Positions 2,863 through 9,409 of a stretch of DNA of 9,514 bases are shown here, piece after piece (within the stretch, counting starts at the first letter, position 1; every line of letters begins with the position of its first letter). The stretch is taken from IMG/VR virus record IMGVR_UViG_2711768021_000003. One strand, written 5' to 3'. The notes beneath the pieces were generated by a model. That model was not told the DNA's origin, made no database searches, and saw only the letters and a program-made list of their open reading frames with translations. Origin of the DNA: a virus (Duplodnaviria; Heunggongvirae; Uroviricota; Caudoviricetes). The position numbers and the translations under genes were made by a program.

Positions 2863-2897
2863 TCCCCGCGGTGCTCAAAACACCTCGAAAGCGGTAT

Positions 2898-2925
2898 CCA
2901 CACCCGATAGCCATGTGGTTTTTTT
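2898..2925 (+). terminator. Weak hairpin plus T7 run, possible second terminator/attenuator
   Basis: CCACA (2898-2902) pairs with TGTGG (2914-2918), followed by seven T (2919-2925). Short stem and long loop, so weak. Confidence 0.3.
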
Positions 2926-3068
2926 GTGTCCAGAATTCTTGGTTTATGACCGGGTGTGCGGCTAATACAATACCAGCAATGGAAATACGCCCGCCGACTT
3001 TCGACGGTTTTGAGCGCCCGGTCACCCTCTCAAAAGGGGTAAATCAAAATATTCGAAAGGACATGTCT

Positions 3069-3632
3069 ATGAATCGCACGTCTATTGAAAAACTCCCGTC
3101 ACTTACGCATAACCATCTTCCTGTCATGACAACAGAGCTGCTGGCTGATTTGTACGGAACAGAGCGCCAGCGTTTGACAAACAATTTCAATCGAAACAAA
3201 GAACGGTTTATAGAAGGTAAACATTTTTTCCTGATAGAAGGTGATGCGTTACGAGAGTTGAAGAACGAAAACTCTTTAAGAGTTTCTGTGAAAATTGCCC
3301 GTAACGTTCGCTCCCTCATCCTCTGGACAGAACGTGGCGCAGCCCGTCACGCCAAAATGCTCGAAACCGATCAGGCGTGGGAAGTGTTCGAAAAACTGGA
3401 AGACTGTTATTTCAACCAGAAACAGCCACCAGCGGCACAAAACACATCTATCGAAAATGATGGATGCGCATTACTGAGCCACTTCGATAAACACGGTCAG
3501 GTTGAGTTCACGGAAAAGGTACCCGCCGATGCGATGGTATGTACTCTGGAACGGTTTAAATTTTATCTGGAGCAACACGGGTGGATCGTTGCCCGTAAAG
3601 AGCAACTGGTGGAGCGGTTGATGCGGTTTTAA
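3069..3632 (+). CDS. ORF6N/Rha-like phage regulatory (antirepressor-type) protein; cargo gene in the late region
   Basis: ATG 3069 (or 3063) with AAAGG 9 nt upstream. 'LPVMTTELLADLYGTERQRLTNNFNRNKERFIEGKHFFLIEGDALRELK' and 'WTERGAARHAKMLETDQAWEVFEKLE' resemble the ORF6N / KilA-N-related DNA-binding domain of phage Ant/Rha-type proteins; the C-terminal ~70 aa are unassigned. Followed by a clean terminator. The track ORF start at 2871 is rejected because 2871-3068 contains a hairpin+T-run and non-protein-like sequence. Confidence 0.65.
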   Translation: MNRTSIEKLPSLTHNHLPVMTTELLADLYGTERQRLTNNFNRNKERFIEGKHFFLIEGDALRELKNENSLRVSVKIARNVRSLILWTERGAARHAKMLETDQAWEVFEKLEDCYFNQKQPPAAQNTSIENDGCALLSHFDKHGQVEFTEKVPADAMVCTLERFKFYLEQHGWIVARKEQLVERLMRF

Positions 3633-3821: not shown

Positions 3822-3898
3822 GGCCCTTTAGCTCAGTTGGTCAGAGCGAGCGACTCATAATCGCCAGGTCGCTGGTTCAAGTCCAGCAAGGGCCACCA
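3822..3898 (+). tRNA. tRNA-Ile2 (anticodon CAT, lysidine type) or tRNA-Met
   Basis: Manual cloverleaf: acceptor GGCCCTT/AAGGGCC, D-arm TAGCTCAGTTGGTCAGAGC, anticodon loop CTCATAA (CAT at 3856-3858), T-arm GCTGGTTCAAGTCCAGC, 3' ACCA. Strongly resembles enterobacterial ileX-type tRNA. Confidence 0.85.
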
Positions 3899-3899
3899 A

Positions 3900-3976
3900 C
3901 CACCACTAGCTCATCCGGATAGAGCATCAACCTTCTAAGTTGACGGTGCGAGGTTCGAGTCCTCGGTGGTGGGCCA
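3900..3976 (+). tRNA. tRNA-Arg (anticodon TCT, reads AGA/AGG)
   Basis: Acceptor CCACCAC/GTGGTGG, D-arm TAGCTCATCCGGATAGAGC, anticodon stem TCAAC/GTTGA with loop CTTCTAA (TCT at 3934-3936), T-arm CGAGGTTCGAGTCCTCG, discriminator G, CCA. Confidence 0.8.
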
Positions 3977-3978
3977 GC

Positions 3979-4054
<76 letters not shown>

Positions 4055-4057
4055 TAT

Positions 4058-4132
<75 letters not shown>

Positions 4133-4167
4133 GCGAGATTTGAGACGAAGGTTGTTATTTGCACTGA

Positions 4168-4179
4168 CACAATATTGTG
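4168..4179. promoter_or_regulatory. Perfect 12-bp palindrome CACAATATTGTG between tRNA cluster and holin (candidate operator)
   Basis: Exact reverse-complement symmetry read from the sequence. No match to LexA or Fur consensus that I can see. Confidence 0.25.
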
Positions 4180-4271
4180 TGGGAATGTCTGACTCCTTAC
4201 CATCTCCTGTTCTGTGATGTTGTTTTGTTGCAGTTCCAGTGCTCTTTTTTCAGCACCAGAATGGTGCATTG

Positions 4272-4559
4272 NNNNNNNNNNNNNNNNNNNNNNNNNNNNN
4301 NNNNNNNNNNNNNNNNNNNNNNNNNNNNNNNNNNNNNNNNNNNNNNNNNNNNNNNNNNNNNNNNNNNNNNNNNNNNNNNNNNNNNNNNNNNNNNNNNNNN
4401 NNNNNNNNNNNNNNNNNNNNNNNNNNNNNNNNNNNNNNNNNNNNNNNNNNNNNNNNNNNNNNNNNNNNNNNNNNNNNNNNNNNNNNNNNNNNNNNNNNNN
4501 NNNNNNNNNNNNNNNNNNNNNNNNNNNNNNNNNNNNNNNNNNNNNNNNNNNNNNNNNNN
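4272..4559. other. Run of 288 N (masked or unsequenced)
   Basis: Literal n characters. Hides the 5' part of the holin gene and its upstream region. Confidence 1.
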
Positions 4560-4661
4560 ATTGGTGTGCTGGGAAGTCTGCTTCTGGGGCTTCTGACTTA
4601 TCTGACAAATCTGTATTTCAAAATAAGAGAAGACAAGCGTAAGGCTGCGAGAGGTGAATAA
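4560..4661 (+). CDS. S: Holin, class II pinholin (phage 21 S21-like), 3' fragment; 5' end lost in N-run
   Basis: Visible C-terminus '[33 protein letters not shown]' matches the second TMD and charged tail of S21-type pinholins. Stop TAA overlaps the ATG of the downstream SAR endolysin (TAATG). Confidence 0.7.
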
Positions 4662-5022
4662 TGTCGCCATCATTACGCAAGGCTGTTGCAGCTGCTATTG
4701 GTGGTGGGGCTGTTGCTATAGCATCTGTGTTAATCACTGGCCCAGGTGGTAACGATGGTCTGGAAGGTGTCAGCTACATACCATACAAAGATATCATTGG
4801 TGTATGGACTGTATGTCACGGACACACCGGAAAAGACATCATGCTCGGTAAAACGTATACCGAAGCAGAATGCAAAGCCCTCCTGAATAAAGACCTTGCC
4901 ACTGTCGCCAGACAAATTAACCCGTACATCAAAGTCGATATACCGGAAACAACGCGCGGCGCTCTTTACTCGTTCGTTTACAACGTGGGCGCTGGCAATT
5001 TCAGAACATCGACGCTTCTTCG
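4661..5022 (+). CDS. R: SAR endolysin (T4-lysozyme-fold muramidase, phage 21 R21 / P1 Lyz-like); 3' end lost in N-run
   Basis: N-terminal Gly/Ala-rich signal-anchor-release segment '[20 protein letters not shown]'; catalytic E-x8-D-x5-T triad in '[16 protein letters not shown]'; '[15 protein letters not shown]' core. The track ORF 4661..5320 is an artefact of reading the N-run in frame into Rz. Confidence 0.8.
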
Positions 5023-5143
5023 NNNNNNNNNNNNNNNNNNNNNNNNNNNNNNNNNNNNNNNNNNNNNNNNNNNNNNNNNNNNNNNNNNNNNNNNNNNNNN
5101 NNNNNNNNNNNNNNNNNNNNNNNNNNNNNNNNNNNNNNNNNNN
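5023..5143. other. Run of 121 N (masked or unsequenced)
   Basis: Literal n characters. Hides the endolysin 3' end and the Rz/Rz1 5' ends. Confidence 1.
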
Positions 5144-5320
5144 GCAGTCTGTCAGTCAGTGCGTGAAGCCACCACCGCCTCCGGCGTGGATAATGCAACC
5201 AGCCCCCGACTGGCAGACACCGCTGAACGGGATTATTTCACCCTCAGAGAGCGGCTGATGACGATGCAGATGCAACTGGAAGGGGCACAGGAGTATATCC
5301 GCACTCAGTGCATTAAGTAG
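5144..5320 (+). CDS. Rz: Rz i-spanin, C-terminal part (5' end lost in N-run)
   Basis: 'AVCQSVREATTASGVDNATSPRLADTAERDYFTLRERLMTMQMQLEGAQEYIRTQC' is nearly identical to the C-terminal third of lambda Rz. Confidence 0.75.
   Translation, partial: AVCQSVREATTASGVDNATSPRLADTAERDYFTLRERLMTMQMQLEGAQEYIRTQCIK
5145..5258 (+). CDS. Rz1: Rz1 o-spanin, C-terminal part, embedded in +1 frame of Rz
   Basis: 'QSVSQCVKPPPPPAWIMQPAPDWQTPLNGIISPSESG' matches the proline-rich mature region of lambda Rz1. The lipobox and signal peptide are in the N-run. Confidence 0.7.
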   Translation, partial: QSVSQCVKPPPPPAWIMQPAPDWQTPLNGIISPSESG

Positions 5321-5362
5321 CCTTTTTATCGTGGTAAACATTTCGCAGGGTATGAGGTATTT

Positions 5363-5713
5363 ATGCCATCACTAATCCCACGTGCCTGCCGTAAGCGTGG
5401 ATGTGCAGGTACAACCACAGACAGTTCGGGTTACTGCGATAAACATCGCGGTGAAGGCTGGGTGCAGCACCAGCGCGGACTGAGCCGCCACCAGCGTGGC
5501 TATGGCTCAAAATGGACGGTGATTCGTGCCCGTATTCTGAAGCGCGATAAAGGTCTGTGTCAGTTGTGTCTGCGTGTCGGTGTGGTGAGCGAGGCGAAAA
5601 CCGTCGACCACATCATCCCGAAAGCGCATGGCGGAACAGACGCAGACAGCAACCTGCAGAGTCTGTGCTGGCCCTGCCATAAAGCGAAAACAGCGCGCGA
5701 ACGAATCCGGTGA
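5363..5713 (+). CDS. HNH endonuclease (packaging-associated, HK97 gp74-like)
   Basis: ATG 5363 with GAGGTA 5 nt upstream. Cys-rich N-terminus (CRKRGC...CDKH) and HNH core 'VDHIIPKAHGGTDADSNLQSLCWPCHKAKT'. Located immediately upstream of TerS/TerL, as in HK97-like phages. Confidence 0.8.
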   Translation: MPSLIPRACRKRGCAGTTTDSSGYCDKHRGEGWVQHQRGLSRHQRGYGSKWTVIRARILKRDKGLCQLCLRVGVVSEAKTVDHIIPKAHGGTDADSNLQSLCWPCHKAKTARERIR

Positions 5714-5735
5714 TAATTATTCTCACTTGTAGGGA

Positions 5736-5795
5736 GGGGCGGGGCAAATCCCTGTGACCTGACGTCTTCCGGACTGCCCGCCCCATCGTTTTTTT
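5736..5795. other. GC-rich inverted repeat plus T-run in the HNH-TerS intergenic region; candidate cos-region element or rho-independent terminator
   Basis: GGGGCGGGGCA (5736-5746) pairs with TGCCCGCCCC (5775-5784) with one bulge; 28-nt loop contains the palindrome GACGTC; followed by T7 (5789-5795). Confidence 0.3.
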
Positions 5796-5834
5796 ATACC
5801 CGCGAAAAATGAAATTTAACCAGGAGTGCCGCAT

Positions 5835-6329
5835 ATGGCTGGAACGGCGGGGCGTTCCGGGCGTCGCCCCAAGCCAACGGCGCGCAAGGCGCTGGCCGGA
5901 AACCCCGGCAAGCGAGCCCTGAACAAAGATGAACCTGTTTTTACGCCCATCAAAGGTGTTGAGCCACCAGAGTGGTTCGCTGAAGAAGATCTCCCTCTCG
6001 CCACGATCATGTGGCAACTGACAACCAAAGAACTCTGCGGTCAGGGCCTGCTGTGCGTGACTGACCTGGCGGTACTTGAGCGGTGGTGCGTGGCCTATGA
6101 GTTCTGGCGACGTGCCGTGAAAAATATTGCCATACAGGGCAACACCATCACCGGTGCAATGGGCGGCAGGGTCAAAAATCCGGAGCTGACCGCCAAAAAA
6201 GAACAGGAGTCCGAGATGAGCAGCACGGGGGCAATGCTCGGACTCGACCCCAGCAGCCGCCAGCGTCTGATTGGCCTGGCGGGGCAGAAGAAAGCCACTA
6301 ACCCGTTTCTGAAAATTATCGAATCATGA
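5835..6329 (+). CDS. Terminase small subunit (P27 family, HK97 gp1-like)
   Basis: ATG 5835 with AGGAG 8 nt upstream (the track GTG at 5826 is too close to the RBS). N-terminal '[26 protein letters not shown]' is the signature of P27-family small terminases. Stop overlaps the TerL start (ATGA). Confidence 0.8.
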
Positions 6330-8059
6330 GCCGGAAATCTTACCCCAACGTAAATGCTGCAAATCAGTATGCCCGGGATGTCGTGCGCGGAAAGATTGTT
6401 GCCTGCCAGTTTGTGATTCAGGCCTGCCAGCGCCATCTTGATGACCTGATGGCGGAAAAAAGTAAGTCGTTTCGTTACCGCTTCGACAAGGACCTGGCTG
6501 AACGGGCCGCGAAATTTATTCAGCTGTTGCCGCACACCAAGGGGGAGTGGGCATTCAAACGGATGCCCATCACGCTGGAGCCGTGGCAGCTATTTGTGAT
6601 CTGCTGTGCGTTTGGCTGGGTCAATAAAGGCACCCGGTTGCGCCGCTTCCGGGAGGTGTACACCGAAATCCCCCGTAAGAACGGCAAATCAGCAATCTCT
6701 GCCGGTGTTGCCCTGTATTGTTTTGCCTGTGATAACGAGTTTGGCGCGGAAGTGTATTCCGGTGCCACGACAGAGAAACAGGCGTGGGAAGTCTTTCGCC
6801 CGGCGCGACTGATGTGTAAACGCACACCCATGCTGACGGAAGCGTTCGGGATTGAGGTTAACGCCTCAAACATGAACCGTCCGGAGGATGGCGCGCGGTT
6901 TGAACCGCTGATCGGCAACCCAGGTGATGGTTCATCACCCCACTGTGCCGTGGTTGATGAATATCACGAGCATGCCACCGATGCGCTTTATACCACAATG
7001 CTTACCGGGATGGGGGCGCGACGTCAGCCACTGATGTGGGCCATCACCACCGCCGGGTACAACATTGAGGGGCCGTGCTACGACAAGCGGCGGGAAGTCA
7101 TCGAGATGCTCAACGGCTCGGTGCCTAACGATGAACTGTTCGGGATCATCTATACCGTTGATGAAGGTGACGACTGGACCGGCCCGCAGGTGCTGGAAAA
7201 AGCCAATCCAAATATTGGCGTGTCGGTTTATCGCGAATTTTTGTTAAGTCAGCAGCAGCGTGCGAAAAATAACGCCCGTCTGGCAAACGTCTTTAAAACA
7301 AAACACCTCAATATCTGGGTGTCGGCGCGTTCGGCGTATTTCAACTTGGTGAGCTGGCAGAGCTGCGAGGATAAATCACTGACCCTTGAGCAGTTCGAGG
7401 GGCAGCCGTGCATTCTGGCCTTTGACCTGGCGCGTAAGCTGGATATGAACAGCATGGCGCGACTTTATACCCGCGAGATTGACGGTAAAACGCATTACTA
7501 CAGTGTGGCCCCGCGTTTCTGGGTACCGTATGACACGGTGTACAGCGTCGAGAAAAATGAAGATCGACGGACAGCCGAACGCTTTCAGAAATGGGTGGAA
7601 ATGGGCGTTCTGACCGTTACCGATGGTGCGGAGGTGGATTATCGCTACATCCTCGAGGAGGCCAAAGCGGCGAACAAAATCAGCCCGGTCAGTGAGTCAC
7701 CCATCGACCCCTTCGGGGCGACCGGGTTGTCACATGACCTTGCTGATGAAGACCTGAATCCCGTCACTATCGTCCAGAACTTCACCAATATGTCCGATCC
7801 GATGAAAGAGCTGGAAGCAGCGATTGAATCGGGACGTTTTCATCATGACGGCAATCCCATCATGACCTGGTGTATCGGCAACGTGGTCGGCAAAAACATG
7901 CCGGGTAACGATGATGTGGTGAAACCCGTCAAAGAGCAGGCGGAAAACAAAATCGATGGTGCAGTTGCGCTGATTATGGCGGTTGGCAGAGCCATGCTGT
8001 ACGAGAAAGAAGACACGCTGTCTGACCACATTGAGTCCTACGGGATCCGCTCGCTTTAA
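6326..8059 (+). CDS. Terminase large subunit (Terminase_1 family, HK97 gp2-like)
   Basis: 577-aa ORF translationally coupled to TerS. ATPase-like N-terminal half ([16 protein letters not shown], Walker-B-like CAVVDEYHE) and nuclease-like C-terminal half ([12 protein letters not shown]). Confidence 0.9.
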
Positions 8060-8070
8060 CTGAGGTAATT

Positions 8071-8253
8071 ATGATCATGCTGATTCTCGCGCCTCTGGTG
8101 GGCGTGCTGGGTGCGCTTTTGCTGGCGTATGGTGCCTGGCTGATTTATCCCCCGGCGGGTTTTGTTGTTGCCGGGGCGCTGTGCCTGTTCTGGTCGTGGC
8201 TGGTGGCGCGATATCTCGACCGTACACGGCAGTCTGTCGGCGGAGGTAAATAG
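8071..8253 (+). CDS. Small hydrophobic protein, two predicted transmembrane helices, unknown function
   Basis: ATG 8071 with GAGG 5 nt upstream, 11 nt after the TerL stop. '[60 protein letters not shown]' is 60 aa with two hydrophobic segments and a charged tail. Stop TAG overlaps a GTG that has a strong GGAGG RBS (candidate portal start). Confidence 0.45.
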
Positions 8254-9409
8254 TGTTCTTTTCGGGATTATTTCAACGAAAAAGCGATGTGCCGGTGACC
8301 ACGCCAGCAGAACTGCTGATGCTATCGGGCTGTCATACGACACCTATACCGGAAAGCGGATCAGTAGCCAGCGGGCCATGCGCCTGACGGCGGTCTATTC
8401 TTGCGTCAGGGTGCTGGCAGAGTCTGTTGGTATGCTGCCCTGCAGTCTCTACAAAATCAGCGGTACCCTGAAAACACGGGCGGTGGATGAACGACTGCAT
8501 AAGTTGGTTTCGGCAAAACCTAATGGCTACATGACACCGCAGGAATTCTGGGAGCTGGTTATTGTCTGCCTGTGTCTACGGGGGAATTTTTACGCCTACA
8601 AGGTAAAGGCACTGGGAGAAGTGGTGGAGCTTCTTCCGATAGATCCGGGCTGTGTGGAACCGAAGCTGAACAGCCAGTGGCAGCCGGTTTATCAGGTGAC
8701 GTTTCCGGATGGTTCCGTGGATGTGTTGACCCAGAATGAAATCTGGCATGTGCGCACCCTGACGCTGGATGGACTTGTCGGGCTGAATCCCATTGCGTAT
8801 GCGCGTGAGGCCATTTCACTGGCAGCGGCAACCGAGGAGCACGGTGCCAGGTTGTTTAGTAATGGTGCGGTGACATCCGGTGTGTTGCGTACGGAACAAA
8901 AGCTCACGCCGGATGCTTACGAGCGTCTGAAGAAAGATTTTGAGGAGTGTCACACGGGGCTTGGCAATGCTCACCGCCCGATGATTCTGGAAATGGGGCT
9001 GGACTGGAAGTCGATGGCGCTGAACGCCGAGGACAGTCAGTTCCTGGAAACCCGCAAGTTTCAGCTGGAAGAAATCTGTCGTCTGTTCCGGGTGCCGTTG
9101 CACATGGTGCAGAACACCGATCGCGCCACCTTCAACAATATCGAAGAGCTGGGGCTGGGATTTATCAACTATTCACTGGTGCCGTATCTGACCCGCATCG
9201 AACAGCGGATCAACACCGGACTGGTACGAAAAAGTAAGCAGGGCGTTTATTACGCCAAATTTAACGCCGGGGCGTTACTGCGCGGGGATATGAAGTCCCG
9301 TTTTGAAGCCTACGCCACCGGGATCAACTGGGGAATTTACTCTTCCAATGACTGCCGCGACCTGGAAGATATGAATCCGCGTCCCGGTGGTGTAATGCCG
9401 ATCAGTTAA
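8253..9409 (+). CDS. Portal protein (HK97 family) with an apparent -1 frame break near 8327-8330
   Basis: Main ORF (frame of 8162, through 9409) carries portal motifs 'AMRLTAVYSCVRVLAESVGMLP' and 'GLNPIAYAREAISLAAATEEHGARLFSNGAVTSGVL'. The best start is GTG 8253 (GGAGG at 8242-8246) but it is in a different frame that stops at 8385-8387. The two frames join if the GGG run at 8327-8329 is read as GGGG. The unambiguous in-frame part is 8378..9409. Confidence 0.7.

Follow-up and report, generated by a model that had tools for sequence, protein, structure and literature searches.

The window, that is, the whole 9,514-nt stretch of DNA analysed here, has a lambdoid upstream context with genes for a DnaB-like helicase (55-1587), a RusA-like resolvase (1841-2212), a Q-like antiterminator (2181-2588) and an ORF6N/anti-repressor protein (2871-3632). 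Four tandem tRNA genes (3822-4132; Met-CAT, Arg-TCT, Thr-TGT and Gly-TCC) lie between the anti-repressor and the lysis genes, and the segment 4050-4133, which comprises the end of tRNA-Thr together with tRNA-Gly, is 100% identical to phage phi467. SfI also carries tRNA genes at the equivalent position (PMC3636060).

The lysis region contains two N runs, at 4272-4559 (288 bases) and 5023-5143 (121 bases). Their flanks encode the C-terminus of a phage-21-type holin with an endolysin (4560-5022) and the C-terminus of Rz (5159-5362), and are 93-97% identical to phage phi467. Several open reading frames in this region are artefacts that read through N: 4177-4596, 4214-4642, 4239-4661 and a lysozyme-Rz ‘fusion’ (4661-5320) on the + strand, and 4084-4608 and 4197-4673 on the - strand. 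The reading of 4661-5320 as an endolysin-Rz deletion fusion, which would imply a defective prophage, was dropped as this ORF spans the N run at 5023-5143.

The remaining genes, all on the + strand, belong to a packaging module. An HNH endonuclease gene (5363-5713) encodes a terminase accessory nuclease of 116 aa (Pfam HNH PF01844, E 1.6e-16) in which the catalytic His/Asn/His and CxxC...CxxC residues, invariant in the HNH alignment (A1), are present. The protein is 99% identical to the HNH protein of phiP27, just 78-79% identical to those of SfV and SfI, and 34% identical to HK97 gp74 (E 2e-10). The small terminase TerS (5835-6329, 164 aa) is of the P27 family, matching Pfam Terminase_4 (E 3.9e-20) and PHROG 83, terminase small subunit (E 1e-58), and shares 48% protein identity with phiP27 TerS. 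The large terminase TerL (6326-8059, 577 aa) combines an ATPase and a nuclease (Pfam TerL_ATPase and TerL_nuclease) and is similar to HK97 gp2 (BLASTP E 8e-31, 26% identity over 522 aligned positions). A portal protein ORF, whose start codon is unrefined, follows at 8162-9409 (Pfam Phage_portal, E 3.3e-107). These families confirm the order HNH, intergenic region, TerS, TerL and portal as the HK97-style module proposed in the initial annotation. HK97 gp1 was considered as a homologue of the TerS in the window and rejected: BLASTP detected no similarity between them (E 6.9), and gp1 has no Pfam match as against Terminase_4 for the window protein. We accordingly do not assign the window protein to the HK97 TerS family.

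The HNH gene ends with a TGA stop codon at 5711-5713. The ORF of TerS is listed from a GTG at 5826, but its likely start is the ATG at 5835, which is preceded by a ribosome-binding site, AGGAG (5822-5826), and agrees with the start annotated in SfV. The intergenic stretch thus covers 5714-5834. It includes a putative upstream cos box (5732-5750, + strand) made up of the G-rich GGGAGGGGCGGGG (5732-5744) and CAAATC (5745-5750). A variable 24-bp spacer (5751-5774, + strand) comes next and ends with a conserved GAC (5772-5774), 5′ of the predicted bottom-strand nick. The spacer is followed by the C-rich 10-mer TGCCCGCCCC (5775-5784, + strand), the candidate cohesive end. The downstream half (5785-5834, + strand), a predicted TerS recognition region, contains a run of seven T (5789-5795), the putative core ACCCGCGAAAAA (5798-5809), AAATTT (5812-5817) and the ribosome-binding site.

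The 10-mer has no second exact copy within the 9,514 nt and is identical to the 10-nt gap of phage SfI. In SfI, both termini of the virion DNA were run-off sequenced and compared with the prophage, yielding a 10-nt gap of 5′-TGCCCGCCCC-3′ from which cos packaging was concluded (PMC3636060). The cos is common to all four phages SfI, SfII, SfIV and SfV (PMC3851460). The SfI record closes with the 10-mer (...GGACTGCCCGCCCC), and its start, GTCGTTTTTTT, lies immediately after it. In the record of phiP27 (NC_003356), the misc_feature ‘cos-site’ at 21806-21815 is CGCCCGCCCC, which aligns base for base with 5775-5784. A megablast search against phage genomes matched the same SfV/SfI/SfII/SfIV/phiP27 group. 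Over positions 5768-6329, identity with the left ends of SfV and SfIV is 97.5-98.4%, while the matches to SfII and SfI, both of ~98%, extend from 5726 and from 5786, respectively. The segment 5710-5837, consisting of the intergenic region and 4 flanking bases, recurs exactly in 5 IMG/VR viral contigs.

The initial annotation had proposed a cos region between the HNH gene and TerS, and the agreement of the 10-mer with the mapped end of SfI and with the phiP27 cos-site bears this out. We put at about 0.9 the probability that an SfV/SfI/phiP27-like temperate phage with HK97-style TerS-TerL-HNH packaging has its cos site at 5714-5834. The site is an already known cos, mapped for SfI in 2013 and annotated in the phiP27 record, and the identification is correct but ordinary.

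Whether the site still serves packaging in this particular genome is a separate matter. The locus could be the relic of a defective prophage, in which the former cos is unused or is used only with packaging functions supplied by a helper. A window of 9.5 kb is too short for judging prophage integrity, the N runs mask parts of the lysis region, and the best match of 5300-6400 among complete Escherichia coli genomes reaches only 96.8%, so the host may be another enterobacterium. However, none of the HNH, TerS, TerL and portal genes is truncated, their domains are intact, and the cos core and downstream half are identical to those of the plaque-forming phages SfI and SfII, and to those of SfIV and SfV from 5768 on. 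The occurrence of the same intergenic sequence in 5 IMG/VR contigs also speaks against decay. A relic is therefore an unlikely reading, and we infer that this particular prophage is probably active.

Accepting the site as a cos, the positions of the nicks can be transferred from its relatives. Cuts are predicted at 5784|5785 in the top strand and at 5774|5775 in the bottom strand, and would generate 10-nt 3′ overhangs. The 3′ polarity is suggested by the SfI run-off reads, which are separated by a gap instead of sharing an overlap, as expected for recessed 5′ ends. It is also the polarity of HK97, which has 3′ overhangs of 10 nt (PMC9410871 figure 1 legend; PMC11331095). The discussion of the former paper gives ‘lambda 10-nt 5′ overhangs, HK97 12-nt 3′ overhangs’, values apparently swapped relative to its own Figure 1 legend (PMC9410871); the HK97 value used throughout is 10-nt 3′.

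The ends of other deposited genomes can be read against these positions. The records of HK97 and phiE125 terminate at the position aligned with the predicted top-strand end, that of phiE125 ending in ...GGGAC CGCCCGCTTC and restarting with GTCGAATTTTCACGCCCGCGAAATTAAAAATT. The Cherry record ends in ...GTAC followed by the 9-nt CGCCGCCCC. For phiL7 and BR143a, the records end exactly at ...GAC, the predicted bottom-strand nick, and the end of the YeP2 record falls within 1 nt of it. The SfV and SfIV records begin 7 nt upstream of the 10-mer, and depositors have not placed ends uniformly; the SfIV genome was linearised by convention (PMC3851460).

The initial annotation also described a GC-rich inverted repeat around a loop containing a GACGTC palindrome and followed by a T-run. 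Its elements and their coordinates hold: the left arm GGGGCGGGGCA occupies 5736-5746, within the upstream box, the right arm is the cohesive-end 10-mer, and the loop between them (5747-5774) is 28 nt long, with GACGTC at 5761-5766 in the spacer. The T-run is likewise present as described. The arms are not complementary along their full length, however. Perfect pairing is limited to 8 nt, between GGGGCGGG (5736-5743) and CCCGCCCC (5777-5784), and extending the stem by GCA/TGC requires a 1-nt bulge at G5744.

Neither the repeat nor its fold departs far from chance. None of 200 shuffled versions of the window contained the combination GGGGCGGG-N20-40-CCCGCCCC, in a test chosen after the pattern was seen. 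Of 5000 shuffles of the 121-nt region, 182 (3.6%) contained some perfect inverted repeat of 8 nt with a loop of 3-40 nt, and the whole window holds 10 perfect 8-nt inverted repeats versus ~2.5 expected. The inverted repeat is mildly unusual only. Palindromic hexamers number 4 in the 121-nt region, including GACGTC, compared with 1.9 expected. As RNA, 5730-5797 has a folding energy of -27 kcal/mol (z = -1.6), with 12 of 200 shuffles equally or more stable, and the full 121-nt region gives z = -1.2. These features are therefore real but, taken by themselves, not statistically striking.

A GC-rich stem followed by a T-run could also act as a Rho-independent terminator of the lysis/HNH transcript, either instead of or besides cos, as the initial annotation had allowed. 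A stable hairpin can indeed be drawn, with 8 G:C pairs and 2 more contributing to its -27 kcal/mol, and a U7 run lies after it. Its geometry nevertheless differs from that of terminators, with a loop of 28 nt as opposed to 3-8 nt and a U-run that begins 4 nt past the stem as opposed to 0-2 nt. A consensus terminator scan returned no call on the + strand in 4600-6400, no Rfam family was matched, and composition accounts for the folding energies.

Relatives lend no support to a maintained stem. In an alignment of 31 diverse relatives (A2), the ten stem pairs drawn in the initial annotation were scored against controls with shuffled 3′ partners. Pairing was found in 66.1% of cells versus 64.8% in the shuffled sets, of which 105 of 500 equalled or exceeded the observed value. 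The covariation score of the stem was not raised either (0.187, compared with 0.191 in shuffles). The close relatives L024/L072, L025 and L064 carry changes in one arm or the other without compensation, and most relatives have lost the GCA/TGC extension through a T in place of G. The T-run moves with the P27-type TerS module and is missing from phi467 and HK97, two phages that still have the G-box and the C-rich end. A Q-like antiterminator is encoded upstream, and late transcription in lambdoid phages has to traverse cos for the head genes to be expressed. A terminator at this position is thus quite improbable, with nothing in favour of even a minor role, and the stem is better explained by the parts of a cos site. 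Burkholderiales relatives retain the G-box even though their 10-mer, GTGCGCTTGC, is not complementary to it. The inverted repeat is a by-product of two separately conserved elements, the G-rich box and the C-rich cohesive end, and no selected hairpin is present.

GACGTC was rejected as a functional palindrome, being neither conserved nor beyond chance; it is missing from phiP27, L024/L072 and L025. A third copy of GGCGGGGCG lies at 5839-5854, in the first TerS codons ([11 protein letters not shown]). This copy and 5779-5790 make up a 12-nt inverted repeat (83% complementary). Relative to the G-box region it is a direct repeat, and it may simply reflect the conserved N-terminal peptide of TerS.

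The left arm had additionally been compared with the cohesive end of phage lambda. This likeness of GGGGCGGGGCA to the lambda end GGGCGGCGACCT is superficial and derives from GC-richness. If it were meaningful, the locus would be a lambda-type cos, its cosN yielding a GGGCGGCGACCT-like 5′ cohesive end from the left G-rich arm. Local alignment to the lambda cos junction, however, gave scores of 20 and 16 on the two strands against a shuffle mean of 15.4 (sd 2.3), values reached by 27 of 500 and 199 of 500 shuffles. The terminase points in another direction as well: TerL is of the HK97/P27 kind and homologous to HK97 gp2, and TerS belongs to Terminase_4 and is not Nu1-like. The ends of SfI, phiP27, HK97 and phiE125 all put the cohesive end on the right, C-rich arm. 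We regard a lambda-type cos as extremely improbable, and the comparison of the left arm with the lambda end does not survive; the end belongs to the right arm, as in the SfI-like cos described above.

Conservation of the upstream half extends well beyond the SfI group. The HNH alignment (A1) was used to fetch 80 loci, one genome per species, of which 73 had enough flank for a search of the coding strand, up to 300 nt after the HNH stop, for a G-rich box followed by an A-run motif. Such a box follows the HNH gene on the + strand in 40 of the 73 loci, which come from many host groups. Controls were nearly empty, with hits in 2/73 loci when the reverse strand was searched, in 1/73 for shuffled sequence and in 0/73 for the flank upstream of HNH. 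Hosts with the box at fixed spacing belong to several phyla and include Enterobacterales, Pasteurellaceae (Haemophilus), Alteromonas, Burkholderiales, Xanthomonas, Pseudomonas, Bacillus and Clostridia; the spacer and the TerS side diverge among them. Their common layout consists of the G-box, (T/G)(C/A)AAATC, a variable spacer of ~24 bp, GAC, a C-rich 10-mer (CGCCGCCnnn or TGCCCGCCCC) and an A/T-tract region. Counted from the last base of CAAATC, the top-strand end lies exactly 34 nt away in the window, phiP27 and HK97. Mean information per column amounts to 1.33 bits for the G-box and 1.17 for AAATC, both inflated by the anchoring of the alignment on the G-rich/A-run pattern, 0.64 for the spacer, 1.28 for GAC, 1.13 for the 10-mer and 0.64 downstream. 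The signal of GAC and the overhang at a fixed distance is independent of this anchor, as are the control counts.

At closer range, among 80 IMG/VR contigs with near-identical TerS, there are 33 distinct upstream sequences, in which the 10-mer and everything to its right are nearly invariant and the left part is mosaic. The left box usually reads GGGGAGGGGCGGGTCAAATC, with the consequence that the GCA/TGC stem extension is lost, and several of these sequences lack GACGTC.

Some loci carry an extra ORF between the HNH stop and the cos module (L094, L097, L099, L100, L106, L109-L111, L115 and L121). In L094 and L097 its product resembles a small Cys-rich, zinc-knuckle-like peptide, with the G-box found further downstream.

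These patterns raise the possibility, to which we give somewhat less than even odds, that HNH-dependent cos sites have a deeply conserved third subsite, namely the G-box with (T/G)CAAATC. This element might be a signal of the cosQ kind for the incoming TerL/HNH complex, positioning or licensing the nicks at the end of packaging. No G-rich or cosQ-like element of HK97-type cos sites is described in the literature searched, with some older primary papers outside its range. How widely the G-box occurs, and at how constant a spacing, is the sole lead of some novelty in this analysis, and a modest one.

The downstream half follows a different rule. When loci are grouped by TerS sequence, positions +1 to +46 sort by TerS subfamily, regardless of which kind of upstream half precedes them. 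TerS proteins of the [11 protein letters not shown] type pair with the T-tract, ACCCGCGAAA and A/T tracts, those of the M(P/S)GPPKTP type with CATCGCCGCAGGTTAGAAAACTTTTTT, and those of the MGGRKPLP type with GTGCGTGCAAATTGAAC. These pairings are independent of the attached upstream type. For instance, phi467 joins a window-like G-box to an M(P/S)GPPKTP-type downstream block, and L105/L125 show the reverse combination. Carriers of MAGT/MSGK-type TerS (phiE125, phiP27 and Haemophilus prophages) keep ACxCCGCGAAA and A/T tracts. Because the downstream sequence varies with the TerS subfamily, a TerS site is suggested there. In HK97, the minimal TerS site spans +15 to +29, where C:G pairs are read by Arg128 and an adjoining A-tract is recognised by shape (PMC11331095). 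By comparison, ACCCGCGAAAAA, at +14 to +25, is likely the TerS core. As TerS in the window lacks detectable similarity to HK97 gp1, the analogy between the two sites is architectural only.

Taken together, these elements suggest how packaging might proceed. In HK97, the HNH protein gp74 stimulates cleavage by TerL at cos, and TerS-dependent stalling occurs at cos (PMC9410871, PMC11331095, PMC13595911). On concatemeric DNA of the present phage, TerS would bind immediately to the right of the cut, at the predicted core between A/T tracts, and TerL, aided by the HNH protein, would nick the two strands at the positions predicted above. The resulting 10-nt 3′ overhang, 5′-TGCCCGCCCC-3′ on the top strand, would form the right genome end. 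Packaging would then run rightward from the TerS side and halt at the next cos. The motor would arrive there from the HNH side, crossing the G-box/CAAATC element (5732-5750) 34 bp before the cut.

Several uses follow from this assignment. The ends of the prophage genome can be assigned at single-base resolution: the left end would begin at 5785, and the predicted 10-nt overhang occupies 5775-5784. A cos packaging type with 3′ overhangs would imply no generalised headful transduction. The three-part layout of G-box, nick region 34 bp away and TerS-dependent block may allow cos sites and genome ends to be predicted in many uncharacterised prophages, and points to a candidate upstream element in the well-studied HK97 system.

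Among known systems, lambda resembles the window in organisation. Its cos (cosQ-cosN-cosB) is likewise nicked in a staggered manner and has, towards the terminase genes, a region bound by TerS, and the upstream element of the window, met first by the incoming motor, may be cosQ-like. The two differ in that they share no significant sequence similarity and use other terminase families. Lambda, moreover, has a 5′ overhang of 12 nt and lacks an HNH protein.

HK97 is closer. Its gene order is the same, its TerL and HNH proteins are homologous, and the comparison of cos regions recommended in the initial annotation revealed the same succession of elements. In HK97 as in the window, a G-rich box with TCAAATC ends 34 nt before the top-strand end and is followed by GAC and a C-rich 10-mer, CGCCGCCAAA in HK97. 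A GC core beside an A/T tract lies downstream, where HK97 TerS binds. Local DNA similarity is nonetheless short, with a score of 23 versus 14.9 +/- 2.2 in shuffles, and the distance from HNH to the end is ~319 bp in HK97 versus 71 bp in the window.

The Stx2e phage phiP27 shares 93.7% DNA identity with the window over a segment that starts in the HNH gene and extends 23 nt beyond the cut, and has the G-box, the 34-bp spacing and the ACCCGCGAAA motif in common with it. It differs in the first base of the 10-mer, which is C instead of the T in the window, and DNA homology stops at ~5807. The Shigella flexneri serotype-converting phages SfI, SfII, SfIV and SfV have the same 10-nt end, TGCCCGCCCC, and ~98% DNA identity from the spacer (in SfI, from after the cut) through TerS. 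Their cos also lies between HNH and TerS, and the cos mechanism has been shown for SfI by its virion ends. In the left box, the window has GGGGCGGGGCAAATC whereas these phages have GGGGCGGGTCAAATC. The cos region 5726-5807 is a mosaic joint, whose left side is shared with phiP27 and whose right side is shared with SfV, SfI, SfII and SfIV.
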